The notes: generated by a model not told the origin, from the sequence alone. Positions 1-30,663 are shown, counted from the first letter of the stretch. The stretch: DNA of 64,000 bases from Candidatus Woesebacteria bacterium (GCA_016432525.1 CP066693.1:352815-416814); one strand, 5' to 3'. Program-made: numbers and translations.

Positions 1-419
1 CTATCCAAAGACCGGTTAAAAAAAATGTTGCTTTTGTTTTTGTTTGATTCAAAATATCAACAATTCTTTTATCATAAGAAGCAGCTACTTTACCTGAAAC
101 CAAATCTGCCTTCATTCCATCAGTCATTTCAGCATCAAATGTTATGGCTATTTGTTTTTTATCGCGAGATCCATGGAAAATAACTTTTTCGCTTGGATTT
201 GTGCCTTCAACAGTTCTATTATCATAAGGGCTTCCACGCTCAACATACATCGCATTTTCTGTTTGAGGTAAAACTATAGTTGTAGTTTGTTTAGAGGGAA
301 TTTTAGAAACTGCAACTTGGATTTGTTTATAAAGTAGAGAATTAAGAAGAGTAAAAGTTATAAATGCAGAAACAGAAATTATAAAAATTGTATAAATAAA
401 ATGACGAGTTATATCTCAT
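1..419 (-). CDS. Polysaccharide deacetylase (NodB/CE4) family protein, 3'-partial at the window edge, with an apparent frameshift after codon 6
   Basis: Minus-strand frame is open from 415 to 1 and encodes ...HFIYTIFIISVSAFITFTLL (TM anchor)...FHGSRDKKQIAITFDAEMTDGM...KATFFLTGLWI, typical NodB motifs. The ATG at 419-417 is in the +1 frame (MRYNSS) and joins the body only if one T is removed from the T4 run at 398-401. The next in-frame ATG is at 250-248. Confidence 0.55.
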
Positions 420-427
420 AAAAAAGG

Positions 428-480
428 CCAGCCAATTTTCAATCTCTAATTTCGAGAATAAAAACTGCTGGCCAATGTGA
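428..480 (-). terminator. Rho-independent terminator downstream of the 794-aa gene
   Basis: On the minus strand GGCCAGC...GCTGGCC is an inverted repeat with an internally structured loop, followed by TTTTTTT. Confidence 0.5.
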
Positions 481-490
481 TACTTAGGGA

Positions 491-2875
491 CTACACCCAA
501 GGAAGTCCACGAACATACAACTGTTCGTAGTTGACCCTAGGCCGACGTCCAGTGCGGATAGCGTTAAGCATTTCCTCGCTGTCCCTTTTTGTTCCAATGT
601 AGAAACAAGGATCGATCTCCAACATCGGGGGTTTTCCTTGTCCCTGTTTCAGAAACTCTACAATTGCACGCCAAAAACCAATGAGCGGTGCTTGAAAACC
701 AGTTTGATAGAACTCAAACCGAACTGGTTTATTGAGACGATAGATGTCGCCAAGTTTCCGCCGAGTGATCTGATAACAAAGCTCGTCCACTTCAGCGCTT
801 GTCATTCCAGGCTGGGACACTTCAATGTTTCTGAACCAATACTGGTGAACCATTGAATCCATTTCTGGATGGCGCATCGAGATCATTCCCATCCGAATTG
901 GAGGTTGGCTTCTAAGCTGCTGCATATCAATGTCATTTCTTGGCTTCAGAACAAACAACTGAAATGGTCGTGCCTGTGATCCGTCTGTATAGACAATGTT
1001 TACTGCAATTTCGTGAGTTACATCCTTGGGTGGGCGTTCATAGACCATCTGACGAAGAGCCTTTGTGGCAATCATATGTGGAACCTCACTTAAGTTCACT
1101 CCATTAGCTTGTCCACGACGGCTTGAGCTTACTGCTCGCCAGAGATGCTTCACCACAATTTCATCGAAAGGCAAATTGCCATAATCGTTAATCCAGTCTG
1201 GAACAAACTGCCCAATAAAAGCTCTGGTGAGTTGTTCAACTGGAACCACTGTTTGTCCGACTGACTGAGTTTGTTGTGCATGTTTGTTTTGCACTGCAAT
1301 TACGACCTGGCCTTGTTGTTGCGCCTGTTCTAAAAACTGCAGTTTAAGCAGATTTTCGTGTTGAGGCATCCAAAACATTGGCAACAATCTCGTACTTCTT
1401 GCTTTCTCTGGAGATTGAATCCAAAGATTCGCAAGAACCGATAAAGTAAATTGGTCCAAAACAATACTTTCGTATTGTCCGGAGGCAAGTGCCTGATGTG
1501 CCAGAAATTGTATCCTGTCACAGACTAAATGGTAACGAGCGCGAACGTTGTGTTTGTTCACACCACGCCTAAGTTCGTATTCATCGTAGACTGCTTGTTC
1601 AGTTAGTTGAGATAACAGAAGTCGCCCAATCTGCAAGTTACGAGGAACAGCCACGAGCCTAATTTCGGTTGAATTGAAATCAAGCTTTGAAATAACTGCT
1701 TTGATCTGCTCACGTTCTTCGCCACTTCCTACATCATGTCGCATGGTTTCGCATTCGCGAAGCCGTCTCATTACTTCTGTATCCAACAAAGCAACGCTTT
1801 CAGGACAAATCATGAGTGTCACACCAATTTGTAAGAGTGCTTTTCGATAGCGCTCCAATTCTTGCTCTGATATTTCCAATACATTGCGTGGAACAAGCAA
1901 GAAAAAGTGTGTCGGCTTGTCAGCATAGGCTTGTTTAAGCGATTGCAGTGCATGTGCGTCAGTTTTGATGTAATACACAAAATCCGCCCAATCGCGCGCG
2001 CGAACCATAACTACTATCCGCTCTCCAGCTTGAACCACCAAATTACGATTTACGGTCCATGGAATGGGAGTTTCTTCCCTTGTTTCATAGATTTTTGCAA
2101 AATAGCGCGGGTCAAAGCCGATTGAGATATAACGTTCTGTTTCCTCAAGATCAGTGACCTTCCCGTCTTCTCCTATTATCTCTTTGAGTTTCAGAGTGCG
2201 GTCAAGTATTCCTCCCAAGACAATGTCTCGAGTACGCAAGACCACATCCTGATAAAGCAGATATTCTTCCGGCGTGATTTTGCCCAAAAGAATGTTCTCT
2301 GGAAATTCAGCCCCAAGCAAGAGAGATTCCATCTCCTCTTTTGTGTAGGTAAGATGATGAACCATATAGCAAACCCGCTCAGGAGAGACTTTGTCAGCCA
2401 AAGATAACTCCATTGCGCGCTGCGCTGCTTCAGGACTAAATTCCGTGAGTGCCAAGTATAGAAGCCTAGCTTCTTTTGGTGTAATGACGCCTAAGTCTAT
2501 ATGCTCCTGTTTCAGAAATACTCTGTATTCCTCTGCCATAAGAACAATGGCCGCAGGAACACTACCGCCCTCGACGTTTTTGGCAAACCTAAACCCCATC
2601 GAGGAACCACTTTTATAAGCTTGAGAAAGGATGTAAATAGTAGCAAATTTCGTTCCGCTCCAACCAGAAATAGCATCTGGATCGTAAGTCAGGAACACGT
2701 CTACTTCCATCACATTGTCTTTCTCCTGAAGCCTAGCAACTACCTTGAAAAGAATAACATCCCGAATTGCATGTCTAACAGGACGCCAATCCTTATCTCG
2801 AGGTGCTTTGCCAATGGAGCTAAACTGCTTGGTGAATCTCTCCAAATGCTGATCAAACAGTGCTAAAGCATCCAT
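491..2875 (-). CDS. Large hypothetical protein (794 aa), no recognisable catalytic or NTP-binding motif; G+C-rich island gene
   Basis: Long uninterrupted ORF with an AAGGAG Shine-Dalgarno before the ATG. No Walker A, HEPN or PD-(D/E)xK signature seen by eye. Internal repeat-like segments LVPRNVLEISEQELERY and AVPRNLQIGRLLLSQL. Much higher G+C than the flanks. Confidence 0.6.
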   Translation of the reverse strand: MDALALFDQHLERFTKQFSSIGKAPRDKDWRPVRHAIRDVILFKVVARLQEKDNVMEVDVFLTYDPDAISGWSGTKFATIYILSQAYKSGSSMGFRFAKNVEGGSVPAAIVLMAEEYRVFLKQEHIDLGVITPKEARLLYLALTEFSPEAAQRAMELSLADKVSPERVCYMVHHLTYTKEEMESLLLGAEFPENILLGKITPEEYLLYQDVVLRTRDIVLGGILDRTLKLKEIIGEDGKVTDLEETERYISIGFDPRYFAKIYETREETPIPWTVNRNLVVQAGERIVVMVRARDWADFVYYIKTDAHALQSLKQAYADKPTHFFLLVPRNVLEISEQELERYRKALLQIGVTLMICPESVALLDTEVMRRLRECETMRHDVGSGEEREQIKAVISKLDFNSTEIRLVAVPRNLQIGRLLLSQLTEQAVYDEYELRRGVNKHNVRARYHLVCDRIQFLAHQALASGQYESIVLDQFTLSVLANLWIQSPEKARSTRLLPMFWMPQHENLLKLQFLEQAQQQGQVVIAVQNKHAQQTQSVGQTVVPVEQLTRAFIGQFVPDWINDYGNLPFDEIVVKHLWRAVSSSRRGQANGVNLSEVPHMIATKALRQMVYERPPKDVTHEIAVNIVYTDGSQARPFQLFVLKPRNDIDMQQLRSQPPIRMGMISMRHPEMDSMVHQYWFRNIEVSQPGMTSAEVDELCYQITRRKLGDIYRLNKPVRFEFYQTGFQAPLIGFWRAIVEFLKQGQGKPPMLEIDPCFYIGTKRDSEEMLNAIRTGRRPRVNYEQLYVRGLPWV

Positions 2876-2981
2876 TTCGGATCTCCTTGTATCTAATTGT
2901 TAACGTACGAGAATGCTCTTTATGAGCTGAGGAATTATATCCTATATTTAATAAAATTGAAAACAGGTACGAAGGAACTAT

Positions 2982-4262
2982 TTACTTATCTAGGGATTCA
3001 CTCAGTACTTTTACTTGAGCAATTGTTTGGGACAAAGTGCTAAATGGGTGGAAAGTCATGTGTTTTTTTATTAAGTACGTATAATTTTTTGTCTGTTTAG
3101 CTATGGGAAAGAGATGATTAAAAGTTACGGCATAAAGTTTAGGTAAATCCTGATCTGGGTTTTCATAAGCTTCTATTAAAAAGGCGATATCAGCTATGTT
3201 ATTCAATACATCAGCCACTCTAGCTCGATAGACCTCGGGTGATAATTTTTTTAGTAGCTTGAATTCAATCCAGTATGGGTTAAACTCAATTGAGTCTATC
3301 CACTTTGAGTCTGAGTTCCAATTTGTTTCAAAGGATTTCAAGTCGCCAATAATATCACCTAATTCATGGATTAGTTCAACAATCTGTTGACGGCGATTAA
3401 CTTTCTTGTTAATGACTACATCAAAACTGTCTATTTCTTTGACATAATATGCTTGTGAGTTTCTATCTGCTAATTTAATTTTTATTCTATCCTTGAACTT
3501 ATCTAAAATAGGATATTCTCGAACCACAAAGTCTAAGACTCCATTAGGAAAAGTAAACTCAGGAAAATTTGGCAATAAACTAAGAAAGCCGTGCTTCCAC
3601 TGATTGTTAAACTGTGAATAAAACCAATTTGGAAGTTTAATTTCAGGGATTTGTTTTTGGCAGTAATTTATTACTTTTTCTCTATTGTCAAGAAAATATT
3701 GATAGTCTACTCTGTTTCCAGCCGACCTGTCAGTTTGATTTTTAAAACCTTTAGTTTTAGCCAGCTGATTACGAGACTTTACTAGATTGACATACCTTGG
3801 CTTTAATCCTTCAAATATTGGCAGGTAATCTTTAAGTATTTGAGCTTCGGCATCAGTTGCAACTCTTTTATCTAATTCATTCCAAATATCTACAATATTG
3901 AGGGTCTTCTCATTTAACCATTTGTCGTTTTCATTTGGCTCTGGCAAAACTTTCTCCATATATTCACTTTGAACCTTAATGTTTCTGTTCATTGCTTTTC
4001 TGTATTGTTCGTCTTTTTCCTCTAGTTCTCTTACAATTACTCCTATATTAGAGTTATATTCATTAAAAACAACGGCAGCATTAACCCAAAATGATACATA
4101 AGAAAATAGGCTTCGAGTCTTAGGACTTGGGAGCTTTTTAAAATTCTCTTCTGCATCATGAGCCGCTTTTTTAACAACTTCCATCAGAACATCAAGATCA
4201 ACCCGCTCATAATGTGCGGGTAACCCTTTACATATTATTTCTAACTGTGTTTTGCTAAACAT
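2982..4262 (-). CDS. Hypothetical protein (426 aa), low-G+C gene embedded in the high-G+C island
   Basis: Clean ATG-initiated ORF (MFSKTQLEIICKGLPAHYERVD...). K/N/E-rich composition like the host backbone. No known motif recognised. Confidence 0.55.
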   Translation of the reverse strand: MFSKTQLEIICKGLPAHYERVDLDVLMEVVKKAAHDAEENFKKLPSPKTRSLFSYVSFWVNAAVVFNEYNSNIGVIVRELEEKDEQYRKAMNRNIKVQSEYMEKVLPEPNENDKWLNEKTLNIVDIWNELDKRVATDAEAQILKDYLPIFEGLKPRYVNLVKSRNQLAKTKGFKNQTDRSAGNRVDYQYFLDNREKVINYCQKQIPEIKLPNWFYSQFNNQWKHGFLSLLPNFPEFTFPNGVLDFVVREYPILDKFKDRIKIKLADRNSQAYYVKEIDSFDVVINKKVNRRQQIVELIHELGDIIGDLKSFETNWNSDSKWIDSIEFNPYWIEFKLLKKLSPEVYRARVADVLNNIADIAFLIEAYENPDQDLPKLYAVTFNHLFPIAKQTKNYTYLIKKHMTFHPFSTLSQTIAQVKVLSESLDK

Positions 4263-4306
4263 ATTCGTATTTTACTTATTTTTTTACCTTTTCACAACAA
4301 AAGCCA

Positions 4307-4339
4307 GAGAAGGGGCAAAATGAACCAATACCCCTTCTC
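4307..4339 (-). terminator. Rho-independent terminator after the 182-aa gene
   Basis: GAGAAGGGG (4307-4315) pairs with CCCCTTCTC (4331-4339), a perfect 9-bp stem, followed on the minus strand by a T-rich tract (plus-strand aaaagcc). Confidence 0.5.
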
Positions 4340-4349
4340 CTTTGGGCGA

Positions 4350-4898
4350 TTACACCCTTGAACGGTCAATCTCAAAGTCAGGAGCAAACTTTGGATCCTG
4401 TGGACAGTTACCTCGCGTTATCGGATTTGAAACTTCTTCTCCTCTCTGATTCGCGATTATCACTTCCTCCACGCTTCTGTGCGGAATCCCCTCATTATCT
4501 ACAAACTGCAATTTGGTTCCAAAGATCATAGGCGTGAAATTGTGATTTGGCATTACAGGTACTACCTCACCATTAGGTCGACATTGGAAGGCCTTGACTG
4601 TATTGTCGTTATAAATCAACAGATTCACTCTGCCTTCAGGTATCATCCGAGTATCCGTACCTACGATGGTCTTCCCTGTATCAAGTTTGTCTTCCAGGGT
4701 CTGCATTGATTGCCAAAAATTGTCTCGATCAGCACTGAACTGTCTTGCAAGTTCGATCTCCGCTTTGTTCTGCGAAAGTTCGCCTTTAACACATGCCTCG
4801 ACAGTTTTATCTATTACTCCCCCTGCTTGTGCTTGGTATTCCCTCGCTGCTTCGTTGATTCCAGCGTTTTCTTTGACATTTCCGTCTTTGACACACAC
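4350..4898 (-). CDS. Hypothetical protein (182 aa), divergent from the helicase gene
   Basis: ORF with a GTG start (MCVKDGNVKENAGINEAAREYQAQAGG...). G+C-rich. Shares the 160-bp intergenic region with the helicase. No known motif. Confidence 0.5.
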   Translation of the reverse strand: MCVKDGNVKENAGINEAAREYQAQAGGVIDKTVEACVKGELSQNKAEIELARQFSADRDNFWQSMQTLEDKLDTGKTIVGTDTRMIPEGRVNLLIYNDNTVKAFQCRPNGEVVPVMPNHNFTPMIFGTKLQFVDNEGIPHRSVEEVIIANQRGEEVSNPITRGNCPQDPKFAPDFEIDRSRV

Positions 4899-5059
4899 AG
4901 ACCTTCTCCTTCTGACTCAATCTGACAAAGAACTTCCTTTCGGAATATTAAATTATACACTATGAGCTCATTTTGTGCTATCATACTGGCTATGCTTTTA
5001 CCGTGTAAACGGAAAAGCGCACATTAACAGTTGGGTTATTTAATACAAAGGAGTAAGAA

Positions 5060-8000
5060 ATGACTCGCGAATGGCAAGCGCCATGTAAGTGGCCAGGTTG
5101 TACGAATAAGATTGGCTACTCTGACTGTTCGTATCGCAATTCTCTTCAATATGGATTCTCAAGACCTGAATACTGTGAGAAACACCAAGAAGAAGAACAA
5201 AGGATGAGAAAGGGTGTAGCTACTCCGTATTTTCGTATACCTCGATTTATCGGTGAGATTCAACCTGGACCTCTGGGTCATATTAAACGCTCAGAAAAAA
5301 GGGTACACATCTCAACAGATAAAGCGAGCAAGTTTGATAAGTCTCGTTTTGGAGTAACTGAGGAAGATATCTACAGGATAGCTACTTGGTTTAAAGACCC
5401 TAATCATCGAGTACTTGTGGCTACAGGAGCAACAGGAGCAGGCAAAACAATTGCAGTACCCTATTGGTTCCTATATCCACCGCAGAAAATTGTGGATGAT
5501 TTCGGATCCGATTACTTCACACGGGATGGCCAAATTCTCCTAACGGAACCTCGAATTATCGCCTTAAAGAAAGCGATAACGTTCCTTGGGGAATTGATGG
5601 GTTCATCAATTGGAAGAGGTCAAGATCTTGGCTATTCATACAGTCAAGAGGACAAATCGGATTGGCGAAATGCAATCGATTTCACAACTGACGGAAAGTT
5701 GGTTAATTGGATCGTTGCAGGGAAAATCAGCCAATATGGATTTATCATCGTAGATGAGGCACATGAAGGTTCTGAGAACATCAAGATCATATTGCGACTA
5801 CTAAACGAGCGGATGAGTCTCTACCCTAACTTGAAAGTTGTAATCCTGAGTGCGACGATTGACACTGAAGAATTTCAGCGATATTTCGCAGGTCAAGGAG
5901 CCTCAATAATCGAGTTTGCAGGTAAGGCAAGGTACGACAGTAAAGGTAATGAAATATTACCCCCAGTTCGACACTTTACAACGCAAGACGAGAGCCTTCC
6001 TTATGAAGATCCCACAAAACTGGCTAAACCTCTAATGCAGAAAGCAAAAGAGAAAGCCCAGTGGCTGGTTGAAGAAATTGTGTCTGGAAGAAAAGAATGG
6101 GGAGATATTCTCATACTTCTTCACGGCAAAAATCCGATCAATCAGTTGGTCAAGGACCTTCAAGCGTGGGCTGGACAAGAAGAAAATCTGTCTCGCATTG
6201 TTGAGGTTTACCCTCTCTATCGTACAGAAAATGATGAGGAAGACCTCACTGCTGTGGCTGATGAAGATCCCTCCCCAGGGAAAATTCGCATAATTGTTTC
6301 GACAAATATCGCCGAGGCATCAGTAACAATTGATAGCCTTGTATATGAAATCGAAACAGGAGTTCAAATTCAGCCACAATTCAAAGCTGAAATAGGTGCC
6401 AACGAATATCCTGTGACTCTCATTAGCCGTGCTAACGCTACACAGCGTTTTGGCAGAGTGGGACGTACTAAAAACGGAGAGGTGTACACGCTCTATACAG
6501 AGCAACAGTTTAACGAGTTGTTTAGAGAGCAACCTCTCGATGTACTGGAGCGCTCAAACTTGGAAGATGTTCTTCTCAAAGTTAAAGCGGCAGGTATCTC
6601 AAATGTTCAAACGGGCTGGTTAGGTAACGCACCTAAGGAGGAAATTGATCGTTCAACTAAACAATTGGTCGACTCAAACATTCTCACTGCAGAAGGGTCA
6701 TTAACATCATATGGCGCACTAGTGCGAATATTTTCGTATCCACCAAGGCTCATTGATATGTTGATGGCTGCTGATGATTTAGGTTGCTCGGTGGAAATGG
6801 CTACGATTTTGCCGGTCATCAAGAATGACGGAACTCGTAGACTTTTGTCTTGGAGATTCAGTTGGGACGCTTATACAAAGCGAATTGCTTTCAAGCGTCA
6901 TAGCGCTCTTATGGCTGGATGCAAGGACGATATGGAGTTTATACTCAAGCTTTACAAAGCTTGGGGTGAGCTTCCTTGGCTAGACCAAAACCAGTTAAGA
7001 GAGCTTTCAAAGGAAGAACTTAACACTCTGAGGAAACAGTGGGCAGATATTCACTTTGTTAATCACAAAGTGTTGCTCGTTATCGCGAAAGACAGAGATG
7101 AAGCTCTCGAACGCCTAGGTGTTAGCACCAAAGAGGAAGGCTCGAGATCGATTAATCTGTCACAGATTAGCCGTGTACGAACTCTTTTGCGGTCAATGCT
7201 AACAGAAACAGAGGTTAGTGCAGCTTCAAATCCATATCGGTATGTTGCAGATATTGAACCACAGGCAGGAACACTTGCTACTTGCAGTCTGATTTCAGAC
7301 GAACAAAGAGCAGTAAAGTCTGATTCTTGGCTTGAAATTCCTGCTTTGGAAGAAGAGACCGATGGAACATTCTCACGTTTTTTCATCGATCAGGTATATC
7401 CAGTGGGCTATCGGTTTGCAGCTAAGTTGGAGCAGCAAGGAGATGGATTCGCGTGGATTAAAACCACAAGAAACCTTACCCGAGCTCAAGCTCTGGCTCA
7501 ACAAACTGTCACTCTCGCTGAAGAAGAACCGGAGGATTTACTTGAAGATGAGATCCTAGAGGTAGAAGAACCAGAAGAAGCTTCAGGCATATCACTGGCT
7601 GATATTCCGATTCAATACTGGAATGTTGATTGCAAACAAGCAGTTCGCACGGCAAGCTCACTCGTAGGAGAGGTCATTGTTGAAATAACAGATTTCTACT
7701 TCGAAGAAGGGCAAGTGCCAGTTGTGATAGCAGAAGTTGTTCCTCAACCGGAACCGTTTGATGTATTTGTCAAACGGCATCGTTATAGCGATGAAGTCAC
7801 AGTAGAAGTAAGAGAAATCTTGCAGTTTGAAGGAGACTACTCTGCGGCCTTAGTTGTGCGTGATATTGAAACCAATCTTGAGGTTCTTGTTGAACCACAA
7901 GATATGAGCTTTACTCGTCAAGCACAGGCTGTAACTCAGATACCAGTGGGCGCTCGCCTAATTCTTAATGTCGAAAATATCGACCTTGAGACACGTCGGG

Positions 8001-9286
8001 TTCGATTGACGAACTGGGAAAAAGTCGAAAATACAATCACCGACCGCTTTATCACTACTGAAGGGGATGATGAGACCACTATTGCGAAAGCTACAGTAGT
8101 CGATATTCACGATGACGGCAAAGTCATGTTTGCTCTTGACCTTGGTCAAGCAACACTTGATATCTGCATCATCATATCGGTATATGGGATTAAGCTTCCC
8201 AAAAACTCAAGCGAATTTAAAATTGGAGAGCAAGCAACACTGAAAGTGTACCGTCGATCAAAAGCAAGCTCGTATGCAGATCTCCCTTCTCTTCCTTCGA
8301 AAGCTGTTTCGAAAATCAGCTCTGAGGAAAGACCAAACGAACTTTCGTGGAAACGAGGAGTGCTACGGTTTACAGGAAGAATGACATACGACAGACTCTA
8401 TGAGTTTAGAACAATTGCAGACAGGGATCTTGACTTCCAAAGGGCTTTAGAGAAACTGTACTGGCATTCAAATTTTGTGTACGCTGCACAATTCGTTGAC
8501 AGTGAGTTGTTTACCCATTTGCAAACAACTCTTGCGGTCGGTACTACTATCAACAACGCTATAGTTGTTGAAATAAACAACGGCGGAGTTGTTGTCGAAT
8601 TGGGTCGAGGACTCAAAGGATTTGTGCCCAGAAGCAAAATTATGGAAGGTCGTGGAAACCTCATCGACTTTGTCACTGTCGGTTCCACTGTACAGGTAAG
8701 GGTGCTTGAACATCGCATCGAACGGGCTCAACCTTTACTTGAAATCATTGGTGGAATTGTAAATCCACTTGAACAGCTTGTTGTTGGACGTACATACAAA
8801 GGCATTGTCGAAGAAGTCAATCAAAACGGAGTCTTTGTTAACTTGTCGCCGACAATCACTGGTCGTGTGAAGCACAATGAAGTTTATCGTGGAGGTACTA
8901 AAACAGAGGATTTGTTCAAGGCTGGAGACAATGTAATCGTGAAGGTTCTTTCTGTTCATCCCAGCAGACATAGCGTTGAACTCAGCATGAAAATTCCTGA
9001 ATACGATCCATCGGCAAAACTCAAGCAAGGGGCCATCGTTGAAGGAATTGTAGCAAGCCAACAAAGCTATGGATACTTTATTACCATAGCCATGGGTATC
9101 GATGGACTATTGCGTCACGAAAACATTCCAGAAGTAAGCACTGGTTTTCTTGGATTAGGCGGAAAAGCTAAGCCCAACATTGCAGTTGGTATGAAACTAC
9201 AAGTCAAAATCATCGCGATCGGTCCAGACCGCAAAAATCCAGCCAAAACCGTCTATGGTTTGGAGTATGTTCGTCAATTGAAGTAA
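5060..9286 (+). CDS. DEAH/RHA-family (HrpA-like) RNA helicase with N-terminal zinc ribbon, acidic linker and tandem C-terminal S1 RNA-binding domains (1408 aa)
   Basis: Motifs in order: Walker A GATGAGKT, motif II IVDEAHE, motif III SAT, motif V TNIAEASVTI, motif VI QRFGRVGR. WH/HA2-like segment YGALVRIFSYPPRLIDMLMAADDLGCSVEMATILPVI. N-terminal CKWPGC...CSYRN...CEKH. Acidic stretch EEEPEDLLEDEILEVEEPEE. Two S1-like OB folds (GRTYKGIVEEVNQNGVFVNLSPTITGRVKHNEV and GAIVEGIVASQQSYGYFITIAMGIDGLLRHENI). Strong SD aaaggag before the ATG. Confidence 0.8.
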   Translation: MTREWQAPCKWPGCTNKIGYSDCSYRNSLQYGFSRPEYCEKHQEEEQRMRKGVATPYFRIPRFIGEIQPGPLGHIKRSEKRVHISTDKASKFDKSRFGVTEEDIYRIATWFKDPNHRVLVATGATGAGKTIAVPYWFLYPPQKIVDDFGSDYFTRDGQILLTEPRIIALKKAITFLGELMGSSIGRGQDLGYSYSQEDKSDWRNAIDFTTDGKLVNWIVAGKISQYGFIIVDEAHEGSENIKIILRLLNERMSLYPNLKVVILSATIDTEEFQRYFAGQGASIIEFAGKARYDSKGNEILPPVRHFTTQDESLPYEDPTKLAKPLMQKAKEKAQWLVEEIVSGRKEWGDILILLHGKNPINQLVKDLQAWAGQEENLSRIVEVYPLYRTENDEEDLTAVADEDPSPGKIRIIVSTNIAEASVTIDSLVYEIETGVQIQPQFKAEIGANEYPVTLISRANATQRFGRVGRTKNGEVYTLYTEQQFNELFREQPLDVLERSNLEDVLLKVKAAGISNVQTGWLGNAPKEEIDRSTKQLVDSNILTAEGSLTSYGALVRIFSYPPRLIDMLMAADDLGCSVEMATILPVIKNDGTRRLLSWRFSWDAYTKRIAFKRHSALMAGCKDDMEFILKLYKAWGELPWLDQNQLRELSKEELNTLRKQWADIHFVNHKVLLVIAKDRDEALERLGVSTKEEGSRSINLSQISRVRTLLRSMLTETEVSAASNPYRYVADIEPQAGTLATCSLISDEQRAVKSDSWLEIPALEEETDGTFSRFFIDQVYPVGYRFAAKLEQQGDGFAWIKTTRNLTRAQALAQQTVTLAEEEPEDLLEDEILEVEEPEEASGISLADIPIQYWNVDCKQAVRTASSLVGEVIVEITDFYFEEGQVPVVIAEVVPQPEPFDVFVKRHRYSDEVTVEVREILQFEGDYSAALVVRDIETNLEVLVEPQDMSFTRQAQAVTQIPVGARLILNVENIDLETRRVRLTNWEKVENTITDRFITTEGDDETTIAKATVVDIHDDGKVMFALDLGQATLDICIIISVYGIKLPKNSSEFKIGEQATLKVYRRSKASSYADLPSLPSKAVSKISSEERPNELSWKRGVLRFTGRMTYDRLYEFRTIADRDLDFQRALEKLYWHSNFVYAAQFVDSELFTHLQTTLAVGTTINNAIVVEINNGGVVVELGRGLKGFVPRSKIMEGRGNLIDFVTVGSTVQVRVLEHRIERAQPLLEIIGGIVNPLEQLVVGRTYKGIVEEVNQNGVFVNLSPTITGRVKHNEVYRGGTKTEDLFKAGDNVIVKVLSVHPSRHSVELSMKIPEYDPSAKLKQGAIVEGIVASQQSYGYFITIAMGIDGLLRHENIPEVSTGFLGLGGKAKPNIAVGMKLQVKIIAIGPDRKNPAKTVYGLEYVRQLK

Positions 9287-9299
9287 CCCAGCTAGTTTC

Positions 9300-9320
9300 A
9301 CAGGTAGGCCCTGTTTTTTT
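9300..9320 (+). terminator. Putative rho-independent terminator after the helicase gene
   Basis: ACAGG-TAGGC-CCTGT stem-loop followed by TTTTTTT. A longer alternative pairing AGGCCCTG...CAGGGCTT is also possible. Confidence 0.4.
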
Positions 9321-9520
9321 AGATCAATATGATTCTAAAGAGCAGGGCTTTTCTATTTCTAAAATGGTTGTTGTGCAACTCTTAGAGGAAGTTAATCTTA
9401 TTTTTTATCAATACCCTCCAAATAACTACATAGTTGCTTCAAGGTTCGAATCCAAACTTACGGGTTAACACGGGCTAGAACGGATTAGTGCCATTCCGTC
9501 AATGGCTATAGGATATTTAG

Positions 9521-9591
9521 CTGCGGGATAGGGATTCGAACCCCAATATGCAGATCCAGATTCTGCTGTCCTACCATTAGACGATCCCGCA
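9521..9591 (-). tRNA. tRNA-Gln (anticodon CUG)
   Basis: Minus-strand sequence TGCGGGATCGTCTAATGGTAGGACAGCAGAATCTGGATCTGCATATTGGGGTTCGAATCCCTATCCCGCA folds as a cloverleaf. U1:A72 and G73 discriminator are typical of bacterial tRNA-Gln. Anticodon loop AUCUGGA. T-loop TTCGAAT. CCA is not encoded. Confidence 0.8.
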
Positions 9592-9676
9592 ATATAGCCA
9601 TATTTTACTCTAAATAGGCTTAATATGCTAATATACTTATATCGATTTGCAGCTTAAAAACCTAAGGAAGAAATCA

Positions 9677-9931
9677 ATGGAAAAGCCAAAGATTAGAGAT
9701 CGAGTACTCTGGAAAATATGGGCAGTAGTTGCAATAGTTACCTTTGCTACACTTGCCGTGAATATGGCAAACTTTTTGATTCTTAAACCTGATAGTTTAA
9801 CAATAGTCGTACCTATCTTGTTTTTAATCATAGCTTTCCAAATTATTGGAACAGTTATAGCAACTATCTTGTCCATCAGGTATAAAAAAGGGATTGGAAT
9901 CCGTAAAAAGAAGAAGTTAATTCAAGAATGA
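9677..9931 (+). CDS. Small membrane protein (84 aa)
   Basis: aaggaag SD then ATG at 9677. Two hydrophobic helices, basic C-terminus. A hairpin (CCTGACAGA...TCTGTCAGG) follows. Confidence 0.45.
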   Translation: MEKPKIRDRVLWKIWAVVAIVTFATLAVNMANFLILKPDSLTIVVPILFLIIAFQIIGTVIATILSIRYKKGIGIRKKKKLIQE

Positions 9932-10021
9932 CCATAACCTGACAGAAAAGGTATCATAGATATCGGCTCTGTCAGGATAATATTTCTTTCCAACTCAATA
10001 ATCTGTACAATTATTGAACAG

Positions 10022-10678
10022 GTGCCAAAAAAGCAAAAAAATCTAAAAACCTTTGTTCTTGCCTTAAGCGCTATAAGCCTTTTTTTATTTTTAATTCTTT
10101 CTTATTTTGTAAGTATTGATAGTCTTGCCTTAAACAATTTTGATCTCTCCCTTACTGTCAATCTTCAAAAGCTAATTCCCAAATCCTTTGACACAACTCT
10201 TTCATTTTTAAGCATTATTGGCACATTTGAAATAATCACTATTTTTTTGATTATTGCCCTAACCAAAATCAAATCCACCAAAAACAAAATAATAATCCTT
10301 GTTCTTTATGTTGTTGGTTCAAGCATTGAGCTAATTCAAAAACTTGCAGTTTATCACCCAACTCCTCCAGCAAATTTCTTTCGCTATAACTTAAGATTTC
10401 TCTTTCCAAGTGGTTTTGTCCAAACAGGTGACTCTTTCCCCTCAGGCCATGCTTTTCGAACAGTTTTTTTGCTCACAATAATTGGCTTTATTCTTCTTAC
10501 TAAAAAATACAAATCAGAAAATAACAAATACTTTCATTTTTTTATTTTGCTATTATTTTTAGTTGCCATGCTTATCTCAAGAGTAAGCTTAGGCGAGCAC
10601 TGGGCCACAGATGTAATAGGAGGAGCGCTTCTAGCTTTTAGTTTTTCCCTTATATCAGTATATAAATGTCTTATCTAA
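10022..10678 (+). CDS. PAP2-family membrane phosphatase (phosphatidic-acid / undecaprenyl-diphosphate phosphatase-like)
   Basis: Multi-TM protein with PAP2 signature residues GDSFPSGHA and HWATDVIGG. Confidence 0.65.
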   Translation: MPKKQKNLKTFVLALSAISLFLFLILSYFVSIDSLALNNFDLSLTVNLQKLIPKSFDTTLSFLSIIGTFEIITIFLIIALTKIKSTKNKIIILVLYVVGSSIELIQKLAVYHPTPPANFFRYNLRFLFPSGFVQTGDSFPSGHAFRTVFLLTIIGFILLTKKYKSENNKYFHFFILLLFLVAMLISRVSLGEHWATDVIGGALLAFSFSLISVYKCLI

Positions 10679-11310
10679 GCTTATTTTTTTTAGAATTTTT
10701 AATAATTTTCAAACTCTCACGCGTCCTACTTCAAAAACTTTTTAGTTTTTTCTTTAAAATAACCAAAAACGAAAAACTATCAATTTATATCATTGCAATT
10801 ATTTTCCTTCCAGGAACTTTTATTCACGAAATGTCTCATTTCTTGTTCGCTCTATTTCTTTTAGTAAAAACAGGCAGACTTAGAATCTTGCCTCAAATCG
10901 AAGGAAAAGAAATTCGCCTAGGGAGTTTAGAAATAGGGAAAACCGATATTTTAAGGCGAAACCTTATAGGAATTGCCCCAATGGTTATAGGAATTGCAAT
11001 TATAGTTACGCTTTTATATTTAATAACTCAAAATCACTCAAATCCTTTTTATGTTTTTTTAACTGCCTTTTCAGTTTTTGAAATCTCAAATACTATGTAT
11101 TCAAGCAAAAAAGATTTAGAGTTAGCACTACCTCTGATTATTCTTTTTATAATGCTTTCAGTTGTTTTATATATCTTAAAAGTCAAAATCTCAATCAACC
11201 TTTTTCAGATACTTTCAAACGAAAAGTTGACATACTTGCTAAAATTAGCAGATATATATTTAGGCTTGCCGATATTTATTAACTCTGCCCTCGCAATAAT
11301 TTTAAGATGA
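10666..11310 (+). CDS. Integral membrane protein with HExxH motif (putative membrane metalloprotease-like)
   Basis: FIHEMSHFLFALF, an HExxH embedded in a TM segment, in a polytopic membrane protein. Confidence 0.4.
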   Translation: MSYLSLFFLEFLIIFKLSRVLLQKLFSFFFKITKNEKLSIYIIAIIFLPGTFIHEMSHFLFALFLLVKTGRLRILPQIEGKEIRLGSLEIGKTDILRRNLIGIAPMVIGIAIIVTLLYLITQNHSNPFYVFLTAFSVFEISNTMYSSKKDLELALPLIILFIMLSVVLYILKVKISINLFQILSNEKLTYLLKLADIYLGLPIFINSALAIILR

Positions 11311-12413
11311 AAAACTTTGTAGATTTTATCCAATTTTCTTATAAAAATTTTGTAAGAAAAATCTTTTTTGCTTTCGATTCAGAAGCCATTCACGAATTCA
11401 TGCTCGATAATGGCGAATTTGTAGGGAAAGTGACACCATTAAAATTTATATTTAATTACAAAGATAAATCCCTAAATCAAGAAATTGCTGGAATAAAATT
11501 CGCCTCTCCAATAGGTTTGTCAGCAGGTTTTGACTACAAGGCAAAGCTTCCAAATGCCTTGCCCTTACTAGGTTTTGGTTTTGGCAGCCTGGGAACAATT
11601 ACAAATAAAGCCTATGAAGGAAATCCATTGCCGCGCTTGGGTCGCTTAGTTAAAACAAAATCTTTAATGGTAAACAAAGGTTTCAAAAACGAAGGAATAG
11701 ATAAAATTCTTAAAAAAGTTAAAAACCAAAAATTCAGCATTCCAATTGGGCTAAGTATCGGAAAAACAAACGAATCAAAAATGAATCAGAAAGAGGGGAT
11801 GGTAGATATCGTATCAGCTTTTAAAAAAGCAGAAAAATCAAAAACCAACTTTAGCTATTACGAACTAAACATAAGCTGCCCCAATCTTCTAGGGGGAGTT
11901 GAATTCTACTCACCCAAAAAACTAAATGATCTTCTAAAAGCAGTAATCGCGCTTAAACTCAAAAAACCTCTTTTTGTCAAAATGCCGATCTCAAAAACAA
12001 ATAAAGAAATTGATGAAATGCTAAAAGTGATCACAAAATTCAAAGTGGGAGCCGTAATTTTTGGAAATTTACAAAAAGACAGATCTGATAAAAGTTTTGT
12101 CAAAAGCGAGCTTGCAAAGTTTCCAATTGGCAATTTTAGTGGAATTCCAACCCAAAAAAGATCAAACGAATTAATTCATTTTGCTTATAAAAAATACGGC
12201 AAAAAAATTAAAATAATCGGCTGCGGGGGAGTATTTAACGCTAATGATGCCTATAAAAAAATAAAACTCGGGGCATCTTTGATTCAACTAATAACAGGCC
12301 TCGTTTTTGAAGGTCCATTTTTGCCAGCAAAAATCAATTTTGATCTTAAAAATTTACTTGAAAAAGATGGCTACAAATCCCTTCAAGATGCAGTCGGAAG
12401 TTTTAATAAATAG
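11307..12413 (+). CDS. pyrD: Dihydroorotate dehydrogenase family protein
   Basis: Active-site motif NISCPN. C-terminal GCGGVFNANDAYKKIKLGASLIQ, a TIM-barrel FMN-binding tail typical of DHODH/DHPD. Confidence 0.6.
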   Translation: MKNFVDFIQFSYKNFVRKIFFAFDSEAIHEFMLDNGEFVGKVTPLKFIFNYKDKSLNQEIAGIKFASPIGLSAGFDYKAKLPNALPLLGFGFGSLGTITNKAYEGNPLPRLGRLVKTKSLMVNKGFKNEGIDKILKKVKNQKFSIPIGLSIGKTNESKMNQKEGMVDIVSAFKKAEKSKTNFSYYELNISCPNLLGGVEFYSPKKLNDLLKAVIALKLKKPLFVKMPISKTNKEIDEMLKVITKFKVGAVIFGNLQKDRSDKSFVKSELAKFPIGNFSGIPTQKRSNELIHFAYKKYGKKIKIIGCGGVFNANDAYKKIKLGASLIQLITGLVFEGPFLPAKINFDLKNLLEKDGYKSLQDAVGSFNK

Positions 12414-17722: not shown

Positions 17723-18887
17723 GATCTAGTTTTGAAGCGCTAATCGCCGGCGCAACACCAAATATCACACCTACAATCATTGAAAATCCAAAAGAAAGTC
17801 CAATGGACCAAATTGGAACATATGTCGTTATAAAGTGATTAATTATTGTCGAGAAAAATATTCCAAGTATAATTCCTACAATCCCACCAATTGAAGAAAG
17901 CGCCACCGCTTCAACCAAGAATTGATTGCGAATATCATTAGGTTTAGCCCCCAGTGCCTTTCTAAGTCCAATCTCTCGCGTACGCTCAGTTACAGAGACA
18001 AGCATGATATTCATAACACCAATCCCCCCAACCAAAAGTGAAATTGCAGCAATTCCTCCAAGAGCTATAGTCAAAACTCCTGTAATCTGAGCAACAGTTG
18101 ATAAAGTCTGCTCTTGAGTCATAATACTAAAATCATCCTCAGAAAGTCTCTTTCCAAGTATTTGAACTGCCCTGACTTCGACTAATTTAACTTGTTCAGG
18201 ATTGTTAGCCGCTATATAAATCGTATTAGGATTAGTAATTCCAAATTGTCGCTGTGCGGAAGATAAAGGAATATAAACTACATTATCTTCATCTATTCCA
18301 AAAGTTGAGCCACGAGGAGCTATAACTCCAACAACTTGGTACTTAATTCCAGAAACATCAATGTTTTTTCCAATAGGGTCAGAATTAAAAAGTTTAGTTA
18401 CTACTGTTTTGCCAATAACTGCAACATGCCTTCCTCCATCGGCTTGTGATTGACTAAAAAATTGACCTTGATCAAATTTAATCGCTGTAATAAGCCTTGT
18501 ATAATTTGACTCAACTCCAGCAATTGTCACATTACGATCATTTTTGTTTCCATTTTTAACTGTTCCAACTTTTTGAATAATGGCAGAGACCTCTGCTTGT
18601 CCAAGTAGTTTAGTCTTCAAATTTGTCGAATCTGCCAAAAGTAACTTATTTGCTTGTATACCTCCAGGTCCTCTCCCACCGCCGATTTTTCCAGGTATTA
18701 CAAACATCAAGTTTGATCCCAATCCTTGAATTTGCTCTGTTATATAAATCTGAAGTCCCGAAACAACAGAAACCAAAAGAATTACAGACATAACTCCAAT
18801 TACAATTCCCAAAATTGTTAAAAAAGATCTCAAACGATTCGCAAGTATTGCAGTAAATGAAGATCTAATTGTCTCATTTATATCCAT
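17697..18887 (-). CDS. ABC transporter permease, MacB/FtsX-like
   Basis: N-terminal TM, large periplasmic domain, C-terminal FtsX-type four-helix permease. Confidence 0.7.
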   Translation of the reverse strand: MDINETIRSSFTAILANRLRSFLTILGIVIGVMSVILLVSVVSGLQIYITEQIQGLGSNLMFVIPGKIGGGRGPGGIQANKLLLADSTNLKTKLLGQAEVSAIIQKVGTVKNGNKNDRNVTIAGVESNYTRLITAIKFDQGQFFSQSQADGGRHVAVIGKTVVTKLFNSDPIGKNIDVSGIKYQVVGVIAPRGSTFGIDEDNVVYIPLSSAQRQFGITNPNTIYIAANNPEQVKLVEVRAVQILGKRLSEDDFSIMTQEQTLSTVAQITGVLTIALGGIAAISLLVGGIGVMNIMLVSVTERTREIGLRKALGAKPNDIRNQFLVEAVALSSIGGIVGIILGIFFSTIINHFITTYVPIWSIGLSFGFSMIVGVIFGVAPAISASKLDPIQSLRYE

Positions 18888-19557
18888 TTAAGGTCCTCCC
18901 ATCTTTAATCTCAACGATTTTATTTGCCTCACGGGCAATATCAGGCGAATGAGTAATTAATATTATAGTGCGCCCCCCTTTATTTAATTTTTTAAAAATT
19001 TTTATTACTTCCTCTCCTGTTTTACTATCCAAATTTCCTGTAGGCTCATCAGCCAAAATTATTTCGGGATTAGTTACCAATGCTCTTGCAATAGCCACTC
19101 TCTGTTGTTGGCCTCCGGAAAGTTGATTTGGTTTTGAATTTAACTTTTCTAAAAGACCAACTGACTCAAGTGCGCCAGTTGCCAATTCAACTCTCTTTTT
19201 GGCTTTTATTCCACTATAAATTAAAGGCAATATCGTGTTATCTAAAGCACTTGTTCTTCTAAGCAAATTAAAGCTTTGGAACACAAAGCCAATTTTTTGA
19301 TTTCGAATTTGAGCCCTCTTTTCTTCTTTGAGTCTTGAAACATCCAAGCCATCCAAAAAATATTTACCCGTTGTTGGATGATCTAAAAGCCCCAAAATAT
19401 TCATGAGAGTTGATTTTCCTGATCCTGAAGGTCCAACGATTGCCAAAAACTCACCTTTTTTGATATTCAAATTAATATCGTAAAGAGCCTGAAACGGTAC
19501 ACCATCGTCAGATTCAAAAATTTTACTAACCTTTACAAGTTCAACTGAATATTTCAT
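18874..19557 (-). CDS. ABC transporter ATP-binding protein (MacB/LolD type)
   Basis: Walker [10 protein letters not shown], signature [15 protein letters not shown], Walker [12 protein letters not shown]. Confidence 0.85.
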
Positions 19558-20600
19558 TTGCTAATAGCTTGAGGATTTATGATAACCTGCTCACCTTCGG
19601 AAAGTCCTGAAATAACCTCGACATCAGTATCAGATTTTATTCCAATTTTAATCTCTCTTTTTTCTGTTATTCCAGTGCCTTTATTTACATAAACGTGGCT
19701 ATCATCAATTAAAGCATCTTGTGGAATTATCAAAACATCCTTTTTGGAAGATGTAATAATATCAGCGTTCCCATTCAAACCATATATTTTTGCGATTCGA
19801 CTGTCGCCAACTTCTATTTTTACTATAACAGCAATTGCGCCAGTTGAGCTAGTTTGTGTTTGGGGGTCGATTTCAACAACTTTTCCTGAAAATACTGTAT
19901 CTCCGTAAGCGTTTAATGTAACGTTTGCGCTCTGTCCGATTTGAACTTGTCCGATATCACTTTCGTCAACTGTAGCATCAAAATCCTTTTGACTAAAATC
20001 CACCATCTGTGCAATTAAGTCAGTTGTTGTAATGTTTTGCCCAGGATTTAAACTTGCTTGATTTACAACTACTCCAGAAAATGGGGAATAAATCACTGCA
20101 TTCTGCATATCTCTCTCTGCAGCCAATAAACTCGCCCAGGCGTTGTCGTTTGCCACCTCAGATGCCGTTCTTGTAGCTTTTTGTGAAAATGTTTCATCAC
20201 TGCTATGATCTTTAACCTGATCATGGATATTCTCAACTGCAGCCTGAGTATTTCTTCTGTTGTTTATTGCCGTTTGAAGTGCAGAATTAAGATCAGTGTT
20301 ATCAAGTGCTGCAATTGTCTGTCCCTTTGAAACGTTATCACCTATAGACACTCCTAAATAGTTTAGTTTTCCAGCTATGGCAAAATGAAGCGAAACAGAT
20401 TTTTTTCCATTTAATATTCCAGAAGCACTAACACGAGATTCGATGTTGTTTTTAGAAACAGTAGCATATTGTAAAGGCACTTTTTTAGCCCGTCCTCTTA
20501 GAACAAAAAATAGGGCAATAAGAATAACAATTATTACAATAATTTTATTTCGTCTCCTCGTCCCCTTTAGTCTTTTAAGAAAATTTATTATTATTTCCAT
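19554..20600 (-). CDS. Efflux periplasmic adaptor (HlyD/MacA-like membrane fusion protein)
   Basis: N-terminal TM, coiled-coil region and beta-barrel/lipoyl-like segments. Overlapping-stop operon with the ABC ATPase and permease. Confidence 0.65.
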   Translation of the reverse strand: MEIIINFLKRLKGTRRRNKIIVIIVILIALFFVLRGRAKKVPLQYATVSKNNIESRVSASGILNGKKSVSLHFAIAGKLNYLGVSIGDNVSKGQTIAALDNTDLNSALQTAINNRRNTQAAVENIHDQVKDHSSDETFSQKATRTASEVANDNAWASLLAAERDMQNAVIYSPFSGVVVNQASLNPGQNITTTDLIAQMVDFSQKDFDATVDESDIGQVQIGQSANVTLNAYGDTVFSGKVVEIDPQTQTSSTGAIAVIVKIEVGDSRIAKIYGLNGNADIITSSKKDVLIIPQDALIDDSHVYVNKGTGITEKREIKIGIKSDTDVEVISGLSEGEQVIINPQAISK

Positions 20601-20637
20601 AATTGCAAATCTAGATTTTACTACTTAAAATGCTTTT

Positions 20638-21240
20638 ATGCACGTATTGCCCAATCTTCCTTACGATTATGGCGCTCTAGAGCCTTATATTGATACCCAA
20701 ACCATGGAACTTCATCATAATAAACATCATCAGGCCTATATTGATAATTTAAATAAAGCACTCGAAAAATATCCAGACCTTGCATCTAAAAAAATCGAAA
20801 ATTTACTTCTTTCAGATTTGCCCGAAGATATCAAACAAGCCGTTGTTAATAACGGAGGAGGACACTTTAATCACTCATTTTTTTGGGAGATTATGTCACC
20901 CAAACCTGAAAATCCCAAAGGTCCATTTCTTGAAGCTTTAAATTCAACCTTTGGAAGTTTAGAAAAATTTAAAGACGCATTTACTCAAAAAGCCATGAGT
21001 ATCTTCGGAAGCGGTTGGGCCTGGCTTCTAGTAACTCCCAAAAAAAAGCTAATTCTCAAAAGACACTCGTTTCAAAATCCTCCAATAGTGAATGGCAATA
21101 AACCGATTCTAGGTCTAGATGTTTGGGAACACGCTTATTACTTAAAATATCAAAACAAGCGTGCTGATTATATAAAGGCATGGTGGAATGTAGTCAACTG
21201 GCCCAAGGTCCAAAAAAACTTCAACCTAGCCTCAAAATGA
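20638..21240 (+). CDS. sodA: Fe/Mn superoxide dismutase
   Basis: HHNKHHQAYIDNLN and DVWEHAYY metal-ligand motifs. Confidence 0.9.
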   Translation: MHVLPNLPYDYGALEPYIDTQTMELHHNKHHQAYIDNLNKALEKYPDLASKKIENLLLSDLPEDIKQAVVNNGGGHFNHSFFWEIMSPKPENPKGPFLEALNSTFGSLEKFKDAFTQKAMSIFGSGWAWLLVTPKKKLILKRHSFQNPPIVNGNKPILGLDVWEHAYYLKYQNKRADYIKAWWNVVNWPKVQKNFNLASK

Positions 21241-27506: not shown

Positions 27507-27631
27507 ACAAACCTCCATACTGCCGTTTATCCAACCATTGGATATTTGCTAGACAGCAGTATTTTGGGTATAAAACCTTACGCCCAAAAGACTGCTGTCT
27601 AAAGGTACTTTATTTGTTAAAGAGCACAAAA

Positions 27632-27654
27632 AAACTCGCAGATAATGCGAGTTA
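27632..27654 (-). terminator. Rho-independent terminator after the phosphoribosyltransferase gene
   Basis: AACTCGCA-GATAA-TGCGAGTT hairpin followed by TTTTTTT on the minus strand. Confidence 0.55.
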
Positions 27655-27762
27655 AATAAATCCAATTATTTGGCAATTGATCTTTAAATTCATATATTTT
27701 TCTCTAAGATCTAAAAGAGATTATAGATGTTACCTACAGGATAAAAACTAAAAACAATTATG

Positions 27763-28311: not shown

Positions 28312-28335
28312 TTTTTGATATAATATAAAAAATTT

Positions 28336-28411
28336 GGCCCCATCGTCTAGTGGTCTAGGACGCCAGGTTCTCATCCTGGTAACCTGGGTTCGACTCCCAG
28401 TGGGGTCACCA
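28336..28411 (+). tRNA. tRNA-Glu (anticodon CUC), CCA encoded
   Basis: GGCCCCATCGTCTAGTGGTCTAGGACGCCAGGTTCTCATCCTGGTAACCTGGGTTCGACTCCCAGTGGGGTCACCA. 7-bp acceptor, D-loop AGTGGTCTA, anticodon loop UUCUCAU, T-loop TTCGACT. Confidence 0.8.
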
Positions 28412-30652: not shown

Positions 30653-30663
30653 GAAGATCTTCC

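Follow-up and report, generated by a model that had tools for sequence, protein, structure and literature searches.

This report concerns a block of four genes in a 64,000-nucleotide stretch of the metagenome-assembled genome of a Candidatus Woesebacteria bacterium (GCA_016432525.1, CP066693.1:352815-416814), here called the window, from whose first letter its coordinates are counted. Three of the genes, for proteins of 794, 426 and 182 amino acids (aa), lie on the minus strand, and the fourth, divergent from them on the plus strand, encodes a predicted DEAH/RHA helicase of 1408 aa (Table 1). Two widespread proteins, one nuclease-like and the other SAVED-like in fold, are joined in the 794-aa protein; they are referred to below as the N-module and the C-module, respectively. 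The conserved unit is the helicase together with these two modules; in the candidate phyla radiation (CPR) the modules are fused, the helicase gene is divergent and a family of small proteins that includes the 182-aa protein (family A) is added.

Table 1. Genes, protein domains and non-coding elements of the block (ORF, open reading frame; REase, restriction endonuclease)
Feature	Coordinates	Strand	Basis
Terminator-like hairpin followed by U6, 3' of the 794-aa gene	426-473	-	fold dG -26.1 kcal/mol, z -4.57
794-aa protein ORF	491-2875	-	ORF call
C-module, residues 399-794: helical hairpin and SAVED-like alpha/beta domain	494-1681	-	
N-module middle, residues 101-382: helical and alpha/beta domains	1730-2575	-	
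REase-like alpha-beta-beta-beta-alpha-beta domain, ~100 N-terminal residues of the 794-aa protein	2576-2875	-	structure model
426-aa protein ORF	2982-4262	-	ORF call
Terminator-like hairpin, 3' of the 182-aa gene	4307-4339	-	fold dG -24 kcal/mol, z -3.67
182-aa protein ORF, GTG start	4350-4898	-	ORF call
Intergenic region from which the 182-aa and helicase genes diverge; promoter-like hexamers and Shine-Dalgarno sequences on both sides	4899-5059	.	consensus matches only
1408-aa predicted DEAH/RHA helicase ORF	5060-9286	+	ORF call
Weak terminator-like hairpin (5-bp stem 9300-9314) and U7, 3' of the helicase gene	9300-9320	+	dG -7 kcal/mol, z -1.4
tRNA-Gln(CTG)	9520-9591	-	ARAGORN and Rfam

The helicase, the 794-aa protein and their surroundings

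The 1408-aa protein is predicted from its sequence to be a bona fide DEAH/RHA helicase of superfamily 2 (SF2). Its helicase motifs are intact (GATGAGKT at 123-130, DEAH at 232-235, SAT at 264-266, TNIAEAS at 415-421 and QRFGRVGR at 462-469), and those at 123-130, 232-235, 264-266 and 462-469 are invariant in 24 homologues. Pfam matches comprise DEAD, Helicase_C and three copies of S1, and a profile search of the PDB retrieved DHX8/Prp22, Prp16, Prp43/DHX15 and HrpA at E values of 1e-78 to 1e-96, as well as bS1. The RecA1/RecA2 core with its putative winged-helix and ratchet domains spans residues ~100-670. An initial annotation of the block, made from the DNA sequence, had described the domain order as a zinc ribbon, DEAH core, HA2 domain, acidic linker and two S1 domains. 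There is indeed an N-terminal cluster of cysteine and histidine residues (C9, C14, C23, C39 and H42), which is partly conserved in the family, as well as a DEAH core and an acidic run (820-842) within a middle region of ~480 residues that has no domain assignment, but the C-terminal S1 domains number three rather than two (Pfam, NCBIfam; ~1151-1395, with the rpsA model aligning to 1153-1392). For the HA2 domain the support consists of alignments of the HrpA and HrpB models that reach to residue ~670; neither Pfam HA2 (PF04408/PF21010) nor OB_NTP_bind (PF07717) matches the helicase, whereas true HrpA matches carry them.

The possibility that this protein is simply an HrpA orthologue, which had been raised at the outset, can be set aside. 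Alignments of the HrpA and HrpB models are limited to residues 115-670, using model positions up to ~590, and their scores fall far under the equivalog cut-offs (TIGR01967 for HrpA, 171.3 bits against 722.75; NF008348, 157 against 1400; the HrpB model, 152 against 546), and the helicase is therefore not an orthologue of either protein. Approximately 40 full-length relatives of the helicase, with identities of 31-69%, are present in a collection of 5.8 billion proteins, and a profile search of genome contigs with the helicase alignment, which returned mostly ordinary HrpA and HrpB, found one true relative, in a Chloroflexota metagenome-assembled genome (MAG; locus L003).

Searches of Pfam, NCBIfam, PHROGs and PADLOC yielded nothing meaningful for the 794-, 426- and 182-aa proteins, a sequence profile of the 794-aa family had no match in the PDB even at E = 1, and Foldseek returned nothing significant from the PDB. 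The earlier statement that the 794-aa protein has no catalytic or nuclease motif thus holds at the level of sequence, but its structure model displays a restriction endonuclease-like N-terminal domain with the PD-(D/E)xK core fold (alpha-beta-beta-beta-alpha-beta), the fold matches of which include Hna, Shedu and Upx. Conserved residues of this domain are D39, E57-x-D59 and K88. D39 precedes strand 2 and E57-V-D59 lies within strand 3, both aspartates being at least 90% conserved; strand 3 has no lysine, and K88 sits in the next helix. In the C-module, Y629, D631, G632, R668-H669, N683, S687, D697, G726 and R736 are invariant and S633 is nearly so. Neither a CD-NTase nor any other cyclase was present in any locus examined.

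The two parts of the 794-aa protein have a wide distribution. Its profile, searched against 1.84 billion representative proteins, matched 906 clusters (50% identity) at E <= 1e-3, and in most of these the two parts occur as independent proteins: the N-module, profile positions 1-386, with ~390-670 aa, and the C-module, positions 407-795, with ~390-415 aa. The fused form accounts for 37 clusters in the 5.8-billion-protein collection. Relatives of the helicase and of the 794-aa protein are nearly all metagenomic, and those with names belong to Woesebacteria, Blackburnbacteria and the 'Patescibacteria group'.

The layout originally described for the block was accurate in its outline: the coordinates of all four ORFs agree, the neighboring tRNA-Gln gene is confirmed, and all three terminators that had been proposed fold in RNA folding calculations, two of them strongly (in each case, 0 of 200 shuffled sequences was equally stable) and that of the helicase weakly. 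A promoter-like site at 5009-4980(-), which is a consensus match, agrees at 10 of 12 positions. The tRNA was the sole RNA found by Rfam over window positions 1-10100. The 234-nt spacer between the helicase and tRNA-Gln genes contains a T-arm-like 11-nt sequence, GGTTCGAATCC, at 9443-9453(+), inverted with respect to the T-arm of tRNA-Gln; ARAGORN and Rfam called nothing there, and the sequence could be a tRNA remnant or a chance match.

The module in CPR and in other bacteria

On four related CPR contigs (L083, L084, L085 and L087), the helicase gene divergently adjoins a minus-strand run of genes that ends in a homologue of the 794-aa protein (773-799 aa), with two to four small genes between the two large ones. 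The flanking genes differ in each locus (MetRS; a nucleotidyl-transferase and tRNAs; DnaE, L19 and RuvC; a glycosyltransferase). The helicase-794 pair is adjacent on every related CPR contig that is long enough, bar one with a truncated helicase (L108), and for 10 pairs of helicase and 794-aa clusters the longest contigs are equal in size. More generally, the helicase and the N- and C-modules adjoin each other in all of the CPR and non-CPR loci that were read, L108 excepted.

The initial annotation had offered the four genes as a set. Their co-occurrence is borne out for the helicase, the 794-aa protein and the 182-aa family, but not for the 426-aa protein, which is confined to the window and L085. 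Family A was found by blastp and iterated hidden Markov model searches in 5/5 CPR loci read, where its linked members are W_182, L085_184, L085_264, L087_263, L084_215 and L083_178. The N-terminus of these proteins, M-C-V-K-D-G-N, is strictly conserved; position 2 is a cysteine, a signal peptide is absent, and the C-terminal halves vary or are swapped. The 426-aa protein has its sole homologue in L085 (49% identity) and is thus present in 2/5 loci; in L083, L084 and L087 its position is taken by a family of 316-324 aa, and a family of ~215 aa is also present. That the 426-aa protein is a diverged member of the 316-324-aa family was considered and rejected (hhalign probability 0.3%).

Two of the CPR loci have features of their own. 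In L085, a DUF7822 gene in opposite orientation (8406-8969, plus strand) lies between two paralogous family A genes. In L108, from a Blackburnbacteria MAG (GCA_016198465.1), the 794-homologue is intact (10001-12382; 78% identity), all that is left of the helicase is an N-terminal ORF of 184 aa (7706-8257), with 83% identity to the window helicase, a copy of family A is divergent from this truncated gene, and the position of the L085 DUF7822 gene is occupied by a 198-aa gene that matches family A. Either the module is decaying in L108 or the contig was wrongly assembled.

Comparison of the CPR helicases reveals a mosaic. In every pair drawn from the window, L083, L084, L085 and L087, identity over the first 680 residues is 57-71%. 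Identities of the C-terminal half fall into two groups, of 57-76% among the window, L083 and L084 and of 39-44% in pairs that involve L085 or L087. The window and L085 share 81% identity in the 794-aa protein and 42% in the C-terminal half of the helicase, as compared with 74% and 76%, respectively, for the window and L083. This incongruence between the helicase halves and the 794-aa protein supports recombination within the module. Housekeeping genes common to the window and the related CPR loci, which were sought in order to calibrate divergence, were not found.

Outside of CPR, all of the loci for which DNA was read possess a same-strand operon in the order N-module, C-module, helicase, and the helicases, of 1478-1962 aa, contain S1 and/or KH domains. 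The trio was confirmed by tblastn in L003, L088 and L089/L090; in L091-L095, the genes that follow the N-module match the trio in order, size and domains. L094 is the conjugative plasmid pB of Paenarthrobacter ureafaciens and L095 is a linear plasmid of a Streptomyces strain. The operon occupies NZ_CP094491 10984-19528 in pB and NZ_CP109047 127117-134464 in Streptomyces sp. NBC_00637. At a further locus (P0047; 2157-aa helicase), for which gene sizes alone were compared, the upstream genes match the trio in size. Named non-CPR relatives come from Anaerolineae, Proteobacteria and Zixibacteria, and also from plasmids of Actinomycetota. Small upstream proteins of the non-CPR operons showed no detectable kinship with family A, bar one weak local match, and no relative of the N- or C-module was found among IMG/VR viral contigs and GenBank phages.

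Many N-module proteins begin with an additional domain. Among 60 representatives, this extension is SUKH (SMI1/KNR4) in 42, TsiV in 3 and NB-ARC in 2, and lenient Pfam scans of the 60 N-module and 31 C-module proteins found no other recurrent weak family. SUKH and TsiV are known from work on polymorphic toxins as immunity domains against nuclease toxins, and Pfam describes TsiV as providing type VI secretion system (T6SS) immunity against VRR-NUC nucleases. The fusion of such domains directly ahead of a nuclease-like fold suggests, by analogy, that the N-module may be a restrained toxic nuclease. In P0279 and P0284, an NB-ARC (STAND) NTPase is fused to N-module positions ~104-386, which comprise the helical and alpha/beta part only, and this middle part of the N-module may be an adaptor rather than an effector.

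The genomic contexts of the non-CPR loci are largely those of mobile elements. In L092 (GCA_048499255.1), the trio lies between a Tn7-like core, which consists of a TnsA/rve fusion (TnsA/B), a TniB-like ATPase and TniQ, and a TerY-P triad of TerY (E = 3.9e-45), PP2C and a Ser-Thr kinase (intervals 324-5600 and 18385-21662). Genes for relaxase, coupling protein and single-stranded DNA-binding protein (SSB) are found in the contexts of L093, L094 and the P0047 locus, which are conjugative elements; L003 is accompanied by recombinase fragments and an insertion sequence element, and the context of L091 looks chromosomal.

A proposed conflict or immune system and its alternatives

We favor, with middling confidence, an interpretation in which a helicase-nuclease system of conflict or immunity, widespread but so far undescribed, acts on single-stranded RNA or DNA and is represented in CPR (Woesebacteria/Blackburnbacteria) by the block. 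This class of function is favored because the module is sparse, mobile, sometimes decayed and borne on plasmids and transposons, and because its folds and fusions are of effector and sensor types; it behaves as an accessory, horizontally exchanged system rather than as a housekeeping RNA helicase. The proposal made in the initial annotation, of an undescribed helicase-centered defense system, is sustained as to the linkage with uncharacterized partners and the mobile contexts, which in one case include TerY-P, while defense itself is something that we infer from context. As for whether such neighborhoods are defense islands, mobile elements recur in them and L092 has its TerY-P triad; the other neighbors gave only weak kinase-domain matches to PADLOC.

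In the mechanism that we envisage, the helicase would bind and translocate on single-stranded RNA of an invader, or on incoming single-stranded DNA, through its S1 domains, and its action would control or feed the nuclease-like partner, with the SAVED-like domain serving as a ligand or oligomerization switch. The small, fast-changing neighbors, i.e. the 182-aa family and the 426-aa protein, would act as regulators or inhibitors, a role that the SUKH or TsiV 'nuclease-immunity' domains, fused ahead of the nuclease-like domain, would play outside of CPR. These steps are put forward with lower confidence than the class of function. Tentatively, the trio might represent a new and phylogenetically wide form of innate immunity, in which a spliceosome-type RNA helicase, on sensing invader RNA or single-stranded nucleic acid, would release a restriction-fold nuclease from auto-inhibition via a SAVED-like switch and without a cyclic-nucleotide synthase. 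CPR would possess a compact, fused variant; we regard this fuller proposal as possible, but would not yet bet on it.

Several observations weigh against a conflict or immune function. No known defense family in PADLOC-DB 2.0 matches the module, a recognized defense system adjoins only one of the loci examined, and the flanks of the block in the window are ordinary housekeeping genes. The canonical (D/E)xK is missing from the nuclease-like domain, in which E-x-D is followed by a lysine in the next helix, and both NB-ARC fusions dispense with the first 100, nuclease-like residues altogether. The similarity of the C-module to SAVED is moderate, with no cyclase nearby. In addition, the 794-aa homologues of CPR are 60-81% identical, which is unusually conserved for an immune gene, and the location of the module beside relaxase genes in three conjugative elements fits a role in transfer or establishment equally well.

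This last point leads to the alternative that has fared best, namely that the module serves the mobile elements themselves, by processing or protecting transferred single-stranded DNA, or in plasmid establishment or counter-defense, and that the CPR copies are chromosomal remnants. Plasmid pB has MobC, relaxase, a hypothetical gene of 408 aa and a small gene on the reverse strand ahead of the module; the P0047 locus has a TrwC-primase on one side of it and a type IV secretion system (T4SS) coupling protein on the other; in L093 it comes after genes for relaxase, two SSBs and DUF2958; and in L088 a DUF6094 methylase-like giant protein is encoded upstream. S1 and KH domains also bind single-stranded DNA. 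Nevertheless, transfer genes are absent from the vicinity of the module in six CPR loci and in L091, a Tn7-like element carries it, too, next to TerY-P, and the fusion of immunity-type domains to a nuclease-like fold is typical of restrained toxic effectors. Defense systems are likewise common plasmid cargo. We consider a function in the service of mobile elements unlikely, though worth keeping in view.

A second alternative is structural and is compatible with any of the functional ones: the block might be a recent genomic island targeted to tRNA-Gln. The initial annotation had drawn attention to a G+C content visibly above that of the flanks over 491-9286 and to the tRNA at its edge. In windowed analysis, G+C is 39-46% over 501-3000 and 4001-9500 and 27-36% in the flanks, and the elevation is real for the helicase, 794-aa and 182-aa genes, but 3001-4000, occupied by the 426-aa gene, is at the backbone level of 33% (33.5% for the gene as a whole). 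The G+C content of third codon positions (GC3) is 40.8, 42.1 and 37.0 for the 794-aa, 182-aa and helicase genes, respectively, and 28.6 for the 426-aa gene, against 26.7 +/- 5.5 for the 44 other ORFs of the window, where other genes match or exceed the G+C of the block (e.g. 47.8% for 25446-27518). tRNA-Gln has its 3' end toward the block, at a distance of 234 nt from the stop codon of the helicase gene, and 3/12 loci have a tRNA a short way 3' of the helicase gene. In L084, the module is bracketed by tRNA-Gly (711-785), on the side of the 794-homologue, and tRNA-Thr (10230-10305), just past the helicase, and in L091 a tRNA-Glu gene is found ~900 bp past the helicase.

An island of this kind is expected to have an integrase and a direct repeat of the tRNA 3' end, and the block has neither. 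As the initial annotation had stated, no integrase or transposase is present among the domains of the four proteins, and no recombinase domain was found within window positions 1-9600 or in the 5 kb upstream. The 3' 23-mer of tRNA-Gln has no second copy, even with up to 3 mismatches allowed, and no repeat family touches the tRNA. An empty site was not recovered when the flanking dihydroorotate dehydrogenase gene was compared with metagenome contigs, in which the nearest relatives were at most 63% identical and showed no synteny. The tRNA-adjacent island layout first proposed received no mechanical support. In composition the 426-aa gene, although within the block, is like the backbone, and the contrast recurs at other sites in other CPR hosts: the GC3 of the three conserved genes exceeds that of the backbone by ~10-15 points in the window, L083 and L085, with only a weak contrast in L084 and L087, where the backbone itself is richer in G+C. 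Since raised G+C accompanies these three families in no fewer than three CPR hosts, it is by itself no sign of recent arrival, and its recurrence in L083 and L085 indicates that the contrast travels with the genes. Together with the differing insertion points, it fits repeated exchange among CPR lineages better than one recent event, and selection on the genes is possible. We consider a recent island at tRNA-Gln improbable, and neither the G+C contrast nor the neighboring tRNA, the features that first drew attention here, is evidence for an integrative island of the classical type.

A truly integrated element may lie elsewhere in the window, ~19 kb from the block at 25446-31623, where a large serine recombinase gene (563 aa, Resolvase N-terminal domain; 28371-30062, minus strand), which abuts or overlaps tRNA-Glu (28336-28411), is flanked by two G+C-rich genes, for a PNP_UDP_1-Bmp fusion (25446-27518; 47.8% G+C, GC3 45) and a staphylococcal nuclease homologue (30664-31623; 44.6% G+C).

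A third alternative would make the module a lineage-specific housekeeping machine for RNA remodeling or decay in some Microgenomates, resembling a degradosome, with its high G+C maintained by purifying selection. The class of the helicase and its bS1-like S1 repeats are in keeping with such a role, as are the strong conservation of the 794-aa protein, the housekeeping genes that flank it in the window and the elevated G+C of the same genes in several CPR hosts. The GC3 of these genes, however, is raised as well as GC1 and GC2, and the module is very sparse, as the 37 fused-protein clusters in 5.8 billion sequences attest, occupies a different position in each genome, has a decayed helicase in L108, is carried as a trio by plasmids and transposons of unrelated phyla and exhibits the incongruent identities of helicase halves and 794-aa protein described above; we find a housekeeping function harder to credit than a targeted island. 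Finally, the module could be a selfish addiction cassette, retained because its loss kills the cell, in which a nuclease toxin is checked by immunity domains in cis or trans and the helicase is a regulator; the anti-nuclease-toxin domains fused directly upstream of the nuclease-like fold, the mobile locations and the small variable genes that adjoin the module in CPR would suit it, but an intact-motif helicase of 1400-2150 aa and a separate, well-conserved SAVED-like protein far exceed known addiction modules, and L108 retains the nuclease-like protein yet has lost most of the helicase, which leaves this explanation the least probable.

If the module is indeed a conflict or immune system, its CPR form would be among the few dedicated defense systems of minimal-genome symbionts. 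CPR genomes, of ~1 Mb, carry few recognized defense systems, and the investment of 9 kb in this module is notable. Moreover, bacterial DEAH/RHA helicases are barely understood, and a defined set of partners offers a handle on their substrates. Because the family (906 clusters at 50% identity) is present on plasmids of cultivable Paenarthrobacter and Streptomyces, these ideas are directly testable.

Comparison with known systems

In PADLOC-DB 2.0, which includes Hachiman, Druantia, DISARM, Mokosh, Zorya, Gabija and Hna among others, the 794-, 426- and 182-aa proteins had no match and the helicase gave only a weak match to Cas3 (E = 4e-5, 21 bits); the non-CPR N-module, C-module and helicase likewise matched no system. 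The view, taken from the start, that the gene set belongs to none of Hachiman, Druantia, DISARM and Mokosh is thereby upheld. A survey of the literature on combinations of SUKH, DEAH, S1 and SAVED and on CPR defense found no description of the module, and one may exist elsewhere.

The module helicase is like other DEAH/RHA helicases (HrpA/HrpB; Prp22/DHX8, Prp16, Prp43/DHX15) in its RecA1/RecA2 core and motifs I, II, III and VI, and like Prp22/DHX8 it combines this core with S1. It differs from HrpA and HrpB in that no OB-fold, DUF3418 or APHB was detected, and in possessing the Cys/His cluster, the ~480-residue middle region, three C-terminal S1 domains and a constant linkage to the N- and C-modules. 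The 794-aa protein recalls Cap4 of CBASS, in which a nuclease of the restriction endonuclease fold is fused to a SAVED sensor; unlike Cap4, the module has ~280 extra residues between these domains and a helicase partner, and its loci lack a CD-NTase or cyclase. The domains with which non-CPR N-module proteins begin are the same as in the SUKH and TsiV immunity proteins of polymorphic toxin and T6SS loci, but here they are fused to a nuclease-like protein in a helicase operon instead of lying beside a secreted toxin, and they are absent from the CPR protein of the window.

The closest parallels in layout are Hachiman HamAB, Hna, Druantia DruE, DISARM and Mokosh, which share with the module a large SF2 helicase that is co-encoded with or fused to a PD-(D/E)xK-like nuclease and are often found on mobile elements. 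The helicase of the module is DEAH/RHA with S1 or KH domains, and not Ski2-like, DUF1998/YprA or Upf1-like. The trio thus resembles these helicase-plus-nuclease systems in logic and differs from them in every component. Should it prove to be an immune or conflict system, it would constitute a new architecture: a DEAH/RHA helicase with S1 or KH domains, a nuclease-like protein guarded by immunity domains, and a SAVED-like protein that operates without a cyclase.

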